From Clostridia bacterium (GTDB taxonomy: Bacteria > Bacillota > Clostridia > TANB77 > CAG-508), in NCBI GenBank assembly GCA_045650705.1, contig JAZRRK010000055.1, positions 13,842-77,841 of the forward strand: a stretch of 64,000 nt of DNA, written 5' to 3'. Below the pieces are notes generated by a model. That model was given only the letters and a program-made list of their open reading frames with translations, was not told the origin of the DNA and did no database searches. How positions within the stretch are numbered: position 1 is the stretch's first letter; every line of letters begins with the position of its first letter. Positions 52,597 through 61,093 of the stretch are shown here, piece after piece. Both the position numbers and the translations under genes were made by a program.

Positions 52597-52951
52597 ATGG
52601 AGGTGCTTTTTTTGTTATTTTATTTAACAAGTTTTATAGAATTTTGTAAAACTGCTTTTTTTGTTTTAGGGTACATATCAAATAATAGCTTGTTTCCAGA
52701 ACCATTATCACCAGAAGAAGAGAAAGAATATTTGGAAAGATATATGAATGGTGATGAAGAAGCTAGAAACATACTAATAGAAAGAAACCTAAGATTAGTA
52801 GCACACATATGCAAAAAATATAATATACCAAATCTAGAATTAGATGATTTGATTTCAATAGGAACAATAGGATTGATAAAAGGAATAAACACATTTAATC
52901 TAGATAAGAATGTTAGACTGGCTACATATGCTTCAAGATGCATCGAAAATG
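52597..52951 (+). CDS. sigK: Sigma-K 5' segment (pro-sequence plus region 2; spoIVCB-like), truncated by the intervening element
   Basis: FFVLGYISNNSLFPEPLSPEEEKEYL, NLRLVAHICKKY, LATYASRCIEN. TTG 52612 behind GGAGGTG may be the true start. CATATAAT at 52576-52583 resembles a sigma-E/K -10. Confidence 0.9.
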
Positions 52952-53462
52952 CAACTATCACGTGTTGGAAAATCAAGTGGCGATTAGTAAGCTGTTTGAT
53001 AAATTAAAGGACAAGCTAGATACTGAAATAATAATTCATACTAGCCCTACATGGAAGATACCACGAATAAATGAACATAGTACACTTGGAGAACAAATAA
53101 AATATTATCGTAGACTTGCTAATATAAAACAAACTGATTTATGCCTTAAACTTGGTTGTGATAGAGGTGTTTTAGACCATCTTGAAAATAGAGATATGAA
53201 ACTAATAAATATTAACTTAATTAAAGATATTATAAAAGAATTAAATATTGAAGATAAAATTATTATAAATGATGATTATATTTCTTTTATTTTTGATAAT
53301 CCAAGTAAAGCAATAATTGATTTTAGAAAGAAAAATAATCTTAAAAGAAGTGATTTATCCAAAATGATGAAAATTGATATATCAGTAATTAAAAGATGGG
53401 AAAATGGAAAGTGTCAAATGACTAGAGCAAGTTATAATAAATTAAAAAAATGTATGAGTTAG
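52938..53462 (+). CDS. Double-HTH (XRE-like) protein; its only ATG lies in the sigK 5' segment, outside the element
   Basis: Two HTH units (LGEQIKYYRRLANIKQTDLCLKLG; IIDFRKKNNLKRSDLSKMMKIDISVIKRWENG). No internal ATG before the first HTH. Confidence 0.6.
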   Translation: MHRKCNYHVLENQVAISKLFDKLKDKLDTEIIIHTSPTWKIPRINEHSTLGEQIKYYRRLANIKQTDLCLKLGCDRGVLDHLENRDMKLININLIKDIIKELNIEDKIIINDDYISFIFDNPSKAIIDFRKKNNLKRSDLSKMMKIDISVIKRWENGKCQMTRASYNKLKKCMS

Positions 53463-53650
53463 TCGCTCGTACATTTTTCTTTATCTTTTAAATGCCCTAA
53501 TACAGAATTTAATAATTCTCTTTTAGATGCATCATTAATATTTAATTGTTTTATTTTTTCTATCAATAGGGTTGCATGAAAGTCTGCAACTCTATTTTCA
53601 AGTTCTTTTTTATCTTCTTCTAGTTCTGGAAGATTTACAATAACTTTCAT
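53459..53650 (-). CDS. Small acidic hypothetical protein (63 aa), last gene of the minus-strand module
   Basis: GGAGG SD; follows the FtsK-like gene. Confidence 0.5.
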   Translation of the reverse strand: MKVIVNLPELEEDKKELENRVADFHATLLIEKIKQLNINDASKRELLNSVLGHLKDKEKCTSD

Positions 53651-53696
53651 GCTAGCCTCCTTACTTAAAGTTTATTCAAACTATAAAATAATTTGA

Positions 53697-58915: not shown

Positions 58916-59290
58916 ATGGGTTCTTATGTAGAAACAAATGATACACTGCAAATAACAAGAGAACAAGGATTTCCAAAAGAATTACAATATGAAAAACATC
59001 TAGCTAAACCATTTACTGCTGAAGATTTTAAAGATGTCATATTTGAATTTAAAGATAAACCAAATATAAGAATTTATCACAGACCACCAGTTAGAAATTT
59101 TTTAGTAGAAAATATTAATGGTGAATGGTTATATTGGGGATTAATACATATTATTGAAATAAAACATGATTACATTAAAGGTACAACATCAGGAAAATAT
59201 AAAATAATATATATAAATACACCTGAAGAAATGAAACATGCTCATAATCTTATTGATAGAAATACAGATACTAACTATTTTAAGAATTAA
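58916..59290 (+). CDS. Hypothetical protein (124 aa), last gene of the cargo operon
   Basis: 3-nt gap after the previous gene; no family recognised. Confidence 0.5.
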   Translation: MGSYVETNDTLQITREQGFPKELQYEKHLAKPFTAEDFKDVIFEFKDKPNIRIYHRPPVRNFLVENINGEWLYWGLIHIIEIKHDYIKGTTSGKYKIIYINTPEEMKHAHNLIDRNTDTNYFKN

Positions 59291-59313
59291 GACCAAATCA
59301 ATGGTCTTTTTTT
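59291..59313 (+). terminator. Rho-independent terminator of the cargo operon
   Basis: GACCA-AATCAA-TGGTC plus T-run. Confidence 0.65.
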
Positions 59314-59389
59314 CTTACCTATTGCATTTTTAATTCTATTTGTGATATATTATTTATAGTATCACATTTTAGGAAAGGAATTATTAAAT

Positions 59390-61093
59390 ATGAAAAATAT
59401 AAAAGATATTAAAGATAATAGAAAAATAGCTATATATTCTCGTAAGTCTAAATTTACAGGTAAAGGTGAAAGTACTCATAATCAAATTGAGGCTTGTAAA
59501 AGAAAAATTGAATTAACTTTTGAAAATGTAGATTTAGAAAATGATATTTTAATTTATGAAGATGAAGGCTTTACAGGTTATAATACAAATCGCCCTGCTT
59601 TTCAAAAAATGCTTAAAGATATTAGAGATAAAAAAATAAAAGCTATTGCTTTTTATAAATTAGATAGAATTAGTCGTAATGTATCTGATTTTAGTAGTTT
59701 AGTAATAGAATTAGATAATTTTGATGTGTCATTTTTATCTGCAACAGAAAGTATTGAAAATGTAACCCCTAGTGGTCGTGCTATGATGTTTATGATTTCT
59801 GTATTTGCTCAATTAGAACGTGATACTATTGCAGAACGTATTAGAGATAATATGCTTGAACTTGCTAAAACAGGTCGTTGGCTTGGTGGTATGACACCTA
59901 CAGGCTTTAAATCAGAACAAATAGAAAATATAACTGTAGATGGTAAAAAGAGAAAATTATTCAAGCTTTCCCCTATAGATGAAGAAGTACGAATTGTAAA
60001 AATCCTTTTTGATAAAATGAGAGAATTAAAATCACAAACTAAACTTGAAACTTATACTATTCAAAACGATATTAAAACTAAAAATGATAAAGTATATACA
60101 AGATGGGGACTAAAAAATATTTTAATAAATCCTGTGTATGCTATTGCTGACCAAGATACACTTGATTATTTTAGAAATTTAGGTGTAGAAATTTATGCAG
60201 ATGAAAAAGAATTTGATGGAATACATGGATTGATGGTTTATAACAAAACAGAGAAAAAGAAAAATCAAGTAGTTAGAAAAGATGTAAATGATTGGATTGT
60301 TGCTGTTGGAAAACATAAAGGTATTATATCAGGTAAAGAATGGGTTGAAGTTCAAGACTTATTAGATAGAAATAGTGATATGAAATATCGTAAACCAAAT
60401 GCTAGTAATTGTATTTTATCAGGAATTATTAGATGTTCTCATTGTGGTTCATTTATGAGAGCTAAAATGAAAAATAAAACAGTTGATGAATTAGGTCGCA
60501 GAAGATTTGATTATATGTGCGAACTTAAAGATAAAAGTAGAAAACAAAAATGTCAATGTAAAAATATAAATGGACTTGAAGCTGATGATTTAGTATTAGC
60601 AGAAATAAAAAAACTTGCTATGCCTACATCTAAATTCTATAAAGCACTTAAAAATTTATCTTCAAATACATTTAATAAAGAATATAAAAACAATGAAGAA
60701 GTTAAAACTTTAAAATCATTAATTAATAAAAATGAAAATGATATTAATTCATTACTAGATAAAATCAAATATGTAGATGTTTCTTTATTAGATGATATTT
60801 CTAAAGAGATAAAAAAATTAAAAGAAACTAATATTGAGTTAGAAAAACAAATAAAATCACTAACTAATACTAATTATAATGAAATAAGCGACAAAGAAAC
60901 TGCTGATTTATTACTTAATATATTAGATACTTATTTCACTTCTTTTGATACTTTAGACTTAAATACTAAAAGAAATATGATTAAGTTATTAGTAAGTTCT
61001 ATAACAACAGATGGCGAAGATATAACTATTAACTTTTTAGGTGCTAGAAATATGAAAGATGAAACCTTTCCAACTGGTGCTAACTGCAAATGA
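59390..61093 (+). CDS. Large serine recombinase (SpoIVCA-like); its stop codon lies inside the att core
   Basis: IAIYSRKSKFTGKGES (YxRxS catalytic Ser), resolvase plus recombinase domains, Cys-rich zinc ribbon (CSHCGS...CQCK), coiled coil. Confidence 0.9.
   Translation: MKNIKDIKDNRKIAIYSRKSKFTGKGESTHNQIEACKRKIELTFENVDLENDILIYEDEGFTGYNTNRPAFQKMLKDIRDKKIKAIAFYKLDRISRNVSDFSSLVIELDNFDVSFLSATESIENVTPSGRAMMFMISVFAQLERDTIAERIRDNMLELAKTGRWLGGMTPTGFKSEQIENITVDGKKRKLFKLSPIDEEVRIVKILFDKMRELKSQTKLETYTIQNDIKTKNDKVYTRWGLKNILINPVYAIADQDTLDYFRNLGVEIYADEKEFDGIHGLMVYNKTEKKKNQVVRKDVNDWIVAVGKHKGIISGKEWVEVQDLLDRNSDMKYRKPNASNCILSGIIRCSHCGSFMRAKMKNKTVDELGRRRFDYMCELKDKSRKQKCQCKNINGLEADDLVLAEIKKLAMPTSKFYKALKNLSSNTFNKEYKNNEEVKTLKSLINKNENDINSLLDKIKYVDVSLLDDISKEIKKLKETNIELEKQIKSLTNTNYNEISDKETADLLLNILDTYFTSFDTLDLNTKRNMIKLLVSSITTDGEDITINFLGARNMKDETFPTGANCK

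Follow-up and report, generated by a model that had tools for sequence, protein, structure and literature searches.

A probably skin-like element that splits sigK in a Clostridia bacterium, its family of sigK-targeting serine recombinases and a candidate excision factor

The sigK gene of a Clostridia bacterium lies in two pieces, 8,141 bp apart, in a stretch of 64,000 nucleotides (GenBank assembly GCA_045650705.1, contig JAZRRK010000055.1, positions 13,842 to 77,841), hereafter called the window, and this raises the question of what the intervening element is and whether its removal could make the gene whole again. The 5' segment of sigK (spoIVCB-like, 52597..52950, + strand) encodes the Sigma70_r2 domain and ends with the codon for Asn118 (..LATYASRCIEN), past which its reading frame enters unrelated sequence; the 3' segment (spoIIIC-like, 61092..61448, + strand) begins with the codon for Glu119 (EILMHLRSTKK..), encodes Sigma70_r4 and stops at 61446-48. 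The original prediction had described this split, with AAATG at both junctions and, at the right end, a gene for a large serine recombinase (LSR) that points the same way as sigK, and all its coordinates held in the open reading frame (ORF) table and in the raw sequence. AAATG does occur at 52947-51 and 61088-92, and the LSR gene (59390..61093, +) does end at the right attachment site, attR. When 52952-61092 was excised in silico, a removal said to restore sigma-K, a single 236-codon ORF with both Sigma70_r2 and Sigma70_r4 was indeed obtained, which scored 322 bits on the NCBIfam equivalog TIGR02846 spore_sigmaK (cut-off 298.65), and whose score on the SigE model was far under the cut-off of that model. 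With 312 copies of AAATG on the strand of the window that is shown, the pentamer alone is no evidence; the significance of the junction comes from the exact restoration of the frame, the same joint in syntenic intact sigK genes and the common insertion point of about 65 loci. We consider it probable that the 8.1-kb DNA is a skin-like sigK-intervening element, as had been predicted, whose LSR could restore sigK by precise excision timed to the mother cell, with a small protein, orf63, as excision factor. The intact attachment sites, LSR and sigK halves, together with empty sites in relatives, support this reading.

A scan for LSR loci, with one genome per species, yielded 80 loci with LSRs 41-93% identical to that of the window. 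At about 65 distinct loci the sigK 3' segment follows directly after the LSR, at the identical codon, and the elements of which both ends were present (28 complete elements) measured 3.0-15.6 kb. Going by these sequences, the window element falls within a widespread clade of elements that target sigK in gut Clostridia and other Bacillota. Comparison of the sigK locus in related genomes, which had been proposed as a check, revealed empty sites in the syntenic loci L134, L135, L137, L156, L091 and L092. The first four encode SigK 92-97% identical to that of the window, uninterrupted and with the predicted joint present, which in L134 reads ..TGTATTGAAAATGAAATATTAATGCAT..; L091 and L092 likewise have an intact sigK. 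The nearest metagenome sigK loci keep the order mraY, ftsW/spoVE, murG .. sigK .. rny seen in the window, at 77-85% nucleotide identity. Two apparent exceptions were set aside. The closest sigK (97%), in L147 (4518-6278), seemed to be broken at residue 172, but the contig is chimeric and runs into EF-G of another organism, and a seemingly second intact sigK beside the split one in L068 was identified as SigE.

The left attachment site, attL (52926..52971, +), is made of a sigK-derived arm and an element-derived arm ending in GTTGGAAA (52964-71), and attR (61067..61112, +) of an element-derived arm beginning with TTTCCAAC (61067-74) and a sigK-derived arm. Rebuilt from the two, attP is 46 bp long and has the form TTTCCAAC-N14-AA-N14-GTTGGAAA, with perfect 8-bp inverted ends and with AA exactly in the centre, 14 nt from each inverted repeat. 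Alignment of the junctions across loci gave ..GAAAAT|GCAAC.. for attL and ..GCAAAT|GAAAT.. for attR; in one subclade these read ..GAAAAA|G and ..CGAAT|G, respectively, with only the two As before that position in common. Since AA are the sole letters shared in that subclade and also form the centre of symmetry of attP, the 2-bp crossover is probably AA at 52948-49 / 61089-90, inside AAATG. In another subclade the arms of attP are AGAGCC..GGCTCT with unchanged spacing. Over about 65 loci, the arms of attP differ between subclades, both arms having changed together, and the geometry is fixed. The excised product would leave the chromosomal joint ..TGCATCGAAAATGAGATT.., which is that of an uninterrupted pro-sigma-K gene.

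The LSR (567 aa; Resolvase, Recombinase and Zn_ribbon_recom domains) is full length in the window and has the invariant Y16 S17 R18, D92 R93..R96 and the zinc-ribbon cysteines. Its stop codon TGA (61091-93) spans the junction, with T taken from the Asn118 codon of sigK and GA from the Glu119 codon, and a stop built by the junction in the same manner was found in 19 of the 28 complete elements. An exact look-up of the window LSR found no entry on record, but thousands of LSR relatives are present in metagenomes, and the majority terminate in ..K followed by the stop. Where Asn118 is encoded by AAC or the frame differs, as for P0005 (649 aa) and P0040 (589 aa), the LSR loses the junction stop; its frame then continues into sigK, in some cases out of frame and in others fused in frame to the C-terminal part of SigK.

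The same features bear on whether the window holds a dead remnant. Such a remnant would no longer be excised, and sigK function would either be lost, in an asporogenous lineage, or be supplied by another copy. Decayed relatives do exist: in L017 and L012 the LSR has suffered a frameshift or truncation, and P0237 shows an internal deletion. In the window, however, the LSR is full length with its invariant catalytic residues, attP can be rebuilt with perfect 8-bp inverted ends, orf63 and both halves of sigK are intact, and no second sigK is present within the 64 kb, all of which makes a remnant very improbable.

Under the skin-like reading, the recombination unit would comprise attL, orf63 as the proposed recombination directionality factor (RDF), the LSR gene at the right edge and attR. 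The LSR would pair attL with attR and exchange strands at AA (52948-49 / 61089-90), releasing an 8.1-kb circle that carries the 46-bp attP and leaving an intact pro-sigma-K gene in the chromosome. By analogy with the skin element of Bacillus subtilis and skinCd of Clostridioides difficile, excision would occur in the terminally differentiating mother cell, and the spore would inherit the interrupted copy of sigK. We infer the excision, its timing and the role of orf63, and observe directly the anatomy of the element, the conservation of its site across the family and the empty sites.

The orf63 gene (53459..53650, - strand) has a strong Shine-Dalgarno sequence and encodes 63 aa, predicted to form an acidic helical hairpin (AlphaFold2 model, pLDDT 86.8), with no match in Pfam, NCBIfam or PHROG. 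An iterative profile search that started from this ORF found a family of about 60-aa proteins with a member in every one of the 28 complete elements. The smallest of these, L028 (3.0 kb), has space for little beyond the LSR and its orf63-family gene (8732-8908); in L074 the homologue lies at 9717-9884, and elements with two LSRs carry two copies. Pairwise identities of orf63-family proteins correlate with those of the LSRs (Spearman 0.55, a value reached in 0 of 2000 Mantel permutations), and the identities of the remaining cargo do not track the LSR. When 1.84 billion representative proteins were searched with the orf63 profile, 326 relatives were obtained, and all 150 that were listed are small; the family is unnamed in all sources searched. 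The pattern ATA-N0-4-[GT]ACA[AGC]-N9-14-CATA was present in 17 of 50 distinct regions upstream of orf63-family genes as against 3 of 1753 control upstream regions. From what is known of B. subtilis promoters, we take this pattern to resemble sigma-E-type -35 and -10 elements with a SpoIIID-like GGACAA box between them. Because of the co-occurrence in 28 of 28 elements, the co-variation with the LSR and the sigma-E-like motifs in 34% of the relatives, we propose orf63 as a candidate RDF.

The window also carries a spoIVA equivalog (19275-20753, 774 bits), which confirms the host as an endospore former. The start of sigK itself is likely to be TTG 52612 rather than ATG 52597, as GGAGG is located 8 nt upstream of the former and none is found before the latter; with either start the product has a hydrophobic pro-sequence resembling that of B. 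subtilis pro-sigma-K. Before the gene, a promoter-like sequence, GGCACAAA-N13-CATATAAT (52554..52582, +), can be read, which may be a mother-cell promoter of the sigma-E/sigma-K type and resembles the motif before orf63-family genes elsewhere.

Among the remaining genes of the element, one for an FtsK/SpoIIIE-family ATPase that resembles a TcpA-type coupling protein (53697..55070, -; FtsK_SpoIIIE domain and two N-terminal membrane segments) lies next to that for a Rep protein with an HUH endonuclease and a superfamily-3 helicase, of the CRESS or p4M-like kind (55085..56128, -; H-x-H and Y-x-x-K motifs). In Rep, RNA_helicase scored above its cut-off, and Viral_Rep reached 23.6, below the cut-off of 26. 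The RepA protein of Bifidobacterium plasmid p4M was the only plasmid match above noise (26.8% identity, 61% query coverage, E 2e-9), and no relatives of Rep were found in IMG/VR. A small ORF upstream of Rep (56234..56542, -), kept beside Rep in L010 and L022, probably starts at an internal ATG with a Shine-Dalgarno sequence and would then encode 61 aa. It is followed by two operator-like 14-nt direct repeats, TTGGTATTTRTTAA, 21 bp apart (56587..56621), in the divergent promoter region between Rep and an Xre-family helix-turn-helix (HTH) regulator of 224 aa (56636..57310, +), the second in the element. The first is a double HTH_3 (Xre-type) ORF (52950..53462, +) that begins at the left junction. 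Further cargo (57365..59290, +) consists of an MBL-fold hydrolase, an SRPBCC protein, two DUF1653 paralogues and a 124-aa protein without assigned function; the adjacent DUF1653 genes (58413-58912) are 62% identical to each other, a tandem duplication. Beyond this cargo and 3' of a terminator (59289-59308), the putative promoter of the LSR gene is sigma-A-like and is overlain by an operator-like palindrome, TGTGATA-N12-TATCACA (59341..59366). This palindrome and the repeats at 56587-56621 may be operators for the HTH proteins of the element.

No phage structural genes were found, matches in PHROGs being confined to the integrase, the regulators and the FtsK-like protein, and the structural, packaging or lysis genes of a prophage-like skin of the B. 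subtilis or C. tetani type were likewise absent from these matches. Type IV secretion genes, an oriT or a nick site were not identified in the element, PADLOC gave nothing relevant for a defence system in the cargo, and Rfam found no RNA genes in the window. There is no GC contrast, element and flanks both having 23-30% GC. With its p4M-like Rep and FtsK/TcpA-like protein, and with phage structural genes missing, the element looks plasmid-like or mobilizable, that is, like an integrated rolling-circle plasmid or an integrative and mobilizable element (IME), and not prophage-like.

Could the element then be a plasmid-like or mobilizable parasite that merely uses sigK as a landing site, its excision being tied to its own Xre regulators and to transfer and not to sporulation? 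Carriers would in that case sporulate poorly, or only after chance excision. The Rep and FtsK/TcpA-like module is indeed typical of integrated plasmids and IMEs, and the same LSR clade occurs in very different hosts with different cargo, which varies even among close LSRs: L001, with an LSR 90% identical to that of the window, carries a VirD4-type coupling protein, a tyrosine integrase and an M48 peptidase. The sigma-A-like promoter and operator-like palindrome of the LSR gene would also suit such a parasite, although C. difficile combines a constitutive LSR with developmental control through the RDF. Against a parasite stand the mother-cell-type promoter motifs before the orf63-family gene in many relatives, and the undamaged state of both sigK halves together with the retention of spoIVA, which argues that sporulation still works. 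We therefore regard the parasite as an unlikely explanation, but a much less remote one than the remnant.

Several observations weigh against the skin-like reading, and two of them also favour a parasite. Of the 80 nearest metagenome sigK loci, about 62 have the gene whole, and in about 14 other elements interrupt it at the same site; as sigK is intact in most relatives, the element is, by this comparison, dispensable. The sigma-E-like motif is missing before the orf63 gene of the window itself, where the end of the FtsK-like gene extends into the upstream region, so that developmental control of orf63 is unsupported in this element. The attP junction, searched for as a degenerate pattern that would mark an excised circle or a tandem, was absent from metagenome and viral contig collections, and the orf63 model gave no informative match with Foldseek against PDB (best E 4.4). 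Finally, a second sigK may exist elsewhere in the genome, the search having covered the 64-kb window, where none was found.

Some members of the family depart from the arrangement in the window. In L042, L053, L057, L065, L084 and L088 the orientation of the attachment sites to sigK is unchanged, and the LSR is at the other end, pointing toward the sigK 5' segment; these six loci may correspond to the gene order of B. subtilis, where int is opposite to sigK. In L004/L005 (2176-3962) sigK carries two interruptions: a distant LSR, 23% identical to that of the window, abuts a sigK fragment starting near residue 66, and a second element occupies the usual Asn118 site, which suggests a third insertion site in sigK. 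In L089 (3842-19473) and L064 (7686-15984) the halves of sigK are separated by two LSR genes and two orf63-family genes; by their sequences, these are tandem accretions of elements at one site. A further contig, L022 (8814 bp; LSR 93% and Rep 86% identical to those of the window), starts and ends exactly at the two att cores; the assembly graph must evidently have forked at each of them. It is without terminal overlap and hence no proof of a circle.

A last question concerns the double-HTH ORF at the left junction, which is in frame with the LSR across attP. In the rebuilt attP the LSR ORF runs in frame into the double-HTH ORF, giving 737 aa in the window, with a linker between the recombinase and the two Xre-type HTH domains. 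A continuation of the LSR ORF by 168-209 codons into a double-HTH ORF was present in 12 of the 28 complete elements; it was seen in the window and in L001, L004, L016, L018, L032, L050, L051, L054, L034, L038 and L062. The 12 elements form two subclades, between which the HTH proteins are only about 22% identical. Of the other complete elements, most have 0-32 codons of read-through, and five have an LSR ORF that stops short of the junction. For the HTH ORF of the window, gene callers put the start at GTG 52962, TTG 52965 or GTG 52977. A Shine-Dalgarno sequence precedes none of the four candidate starts of this ORF; the other genes of the element all show a purine-rich, Shine-Dalgarno-like stretch upstream. 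In L016, L018, L032, L157, L050 and L051, translation could begin at an ATG, GTG or TTG past the junction only 33-95 codons in. For this stretch before the start, dN/dS was 0.09-0.11 (L050 vs L051 and L054), equal to that of the HTH domains, and between L016 and L157 its amino-acid identity was 0.52 in frame as against 0.21 and 0.36 in the other frames; the stretch is under purifying selection. In some hosts an in-frame ATG or GTG is located inside sigK, four codons 5' of the junction. A start donated by sigK in this way (ATG 52938) was rejected as the general start of the HTH ORF, as L018, L032, L157, L034 and L062 have in-frame stops, but it is possible in the window itself.

We put forward tentatively that integration into sigK cuts an ORF, with sigK giving the LSR its stop and the HTH half being left without a start codon or ribosome-binding site of its own. 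It is similarly conceivable, though somewhat doubtful, that a functional recombinase-HTH fusion would be made from the free circle or from a tandem array, and a shorter recombinase from the integrated copy. Against a fusion, gene callers annotate separate HTH proteins of 161-166 aa, no fusion of more than 700 aa was among the 120 best LSR relatives, and TPELB_ph1, the one phage relative readable in the attP form, has no C-terminal HTH extension. The record of another phage relative of the LSR, HM T, begins at the prophage end. In L035 (3-1949) a distant second LSR (36% identity) has no stop and runs into a double-HTH ORF; this natural recombinase-HTH fusion ORF sits at an apparent tandem-element junction, upstream of the sigK-adjacent element. 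If the split is functional, the element would read out whether it is integrated or free, which could set the direction of recombination or switch replication and transfer genes, and a split recombinase-HTH ORF would give integrating elements a novel means of monitoring their state.

Taken alone, the element extends only slightly the knowledge gained from B. subtilis, C. difficile and the 2022 survey of Firmicutes. Of more use is the comparison, which delimits a large and coherent clade of serine recombinases that target sigK through a precisely conserved attB/attP pair and could supply new orthogonal integrases, and which nominates a small protein family as the missing excision factor of this clade; many of its members have mother-cell-type promoters, which makes the hypothesis directly testable. 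It also indicates that plasmid-like or mobilizable cargo, besides phage remnants, rides on the sigK recombination unit, and such cargo fits the idea of recombination units being exchanged among types of mobile elements. Three results merit further work: the family of candidate excision factors, the precise model of the att sites and the possible splitting of a recombinase-HTH ORF.

Skin elements of 2.6-48 kb have been described in 15 Firmicutes, in all of which spoIVCA occupies the edge, usually directly 5' of spoIIIC (Galperin et al. 2022). The small size of the present element, its lack of phage structural genes and the position of its LSR beside the 3' segment, which had been offered as its distinguishing features, are therefore all real, but size and gene order are typical of skin elements, and the element is of a kind already known. 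The elements of that survey, like the one in the window, split sigK, have a SpoIVCA-like LSR at the edge and carry varied cargo that is often not phage-like. Beyond the recombinase, no gene was reported there as common to all skin elements, whereas here the orf63 family is present in every complete element; the Rep/TcpA-like module of the window is unmentioned in the survey (Galperin et al. 2022).

B. subtilis skin and the window element are alike in splitting sigK, in having an LSR (SpoIVCA in skin) and in a 5-bp junction repeat; skin is excised in the mother cell and has a small RDF (Skr, 64 aa), the role proposed here for orf63. However, skin is a defective prophage of 48 kb with int opposite to sigK, while the window element is small and non-phage with the LSR in the orientation of sigK; and Skr shares its strand with spoIVCA, whose 5' end it overlaps, in contrast to orf63, which usually lies opposite to its LSR gene. 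In skinCd of C. difficile the LSR (CD1231) is likewise located immediately 5' of the 3' sigK moiety; it is made constitutively, and control is exerted through the sigma-E/SpoIIID-dependent RDF CD1234, an acidic protein of 72 aa reported to be without database homologues (Serrano et al. 2016). We set orf63 beside CD1234 and Skr by description only, all being small and CD1234 acidic as well. In contrast to the 8.1-kb, non-phage element of the window, skinCd is 14.6 kb long, prophage-like and inserted at a different position in sigK (Kim et al. 2012), and C. difficile sigma-K is without the pro-sequence that the window sigK has. The Clostridium perfringens phage PhiS63 and, by the same account, skinCd and skinCt use the core GTAATGAAAT at nt 427 (Kim et al. 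2012), about 75 nt farther downstream in sigK than the site in the window. Other sigK-intervening elements include, besides PhiS63, a prophage of about 57 kb in C. tetani and one in Alicyclobacillus. The gin element in gerE of Bacillus cereus is also a non-phage intervening element with a serine recombinase; it has an accessory factor, GirC/GirX, and is excised during sporulation (Abe et al. 2017). Its target gene gerE, length of 28.6 kb, three recombinases and lack of a Rep/TcpA module all set it apart from the window element.

The cargo has its closest parallels elsewhere. IMEs have been described whose mobilization modules pair HUH Reps of this kind with FtsK-like TcpA proteins (Coluzzi et al. 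2017). The p4M-like pCRESS Reps, of which p4M is the type, occur mostly in integrated elements (Kazlauskas et al. 2019). IMEs with RCR-type relaxases and integrated pCRESS plasmids share with the window element an integrase, an HUH Rep related to RCR initiators of viruses and plasmids (PF02407/PF00910), an FtsK-like TcpA and the lack of type IV secretion. Streptococcal Rep/TcpA modules differ in having tyrosine integrases and tcpA upstream of the relaxase, whereas the window element has an LSR as integrase and Rep ahead of the FtsK-like gene. For the split ORF, the parallel lies in cluster G mycobacteriophages, of which Broussard and colleagues are said to have reported in 2013 that attP lies inside an ORF and that integrated and free forms differ in protein C-termini. 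There the split gene is that of the repressor and the integrase is of the tyrosine type, whereas in the window it is the LSR itself that would be split, and it would be joined to a double-HTH domain.

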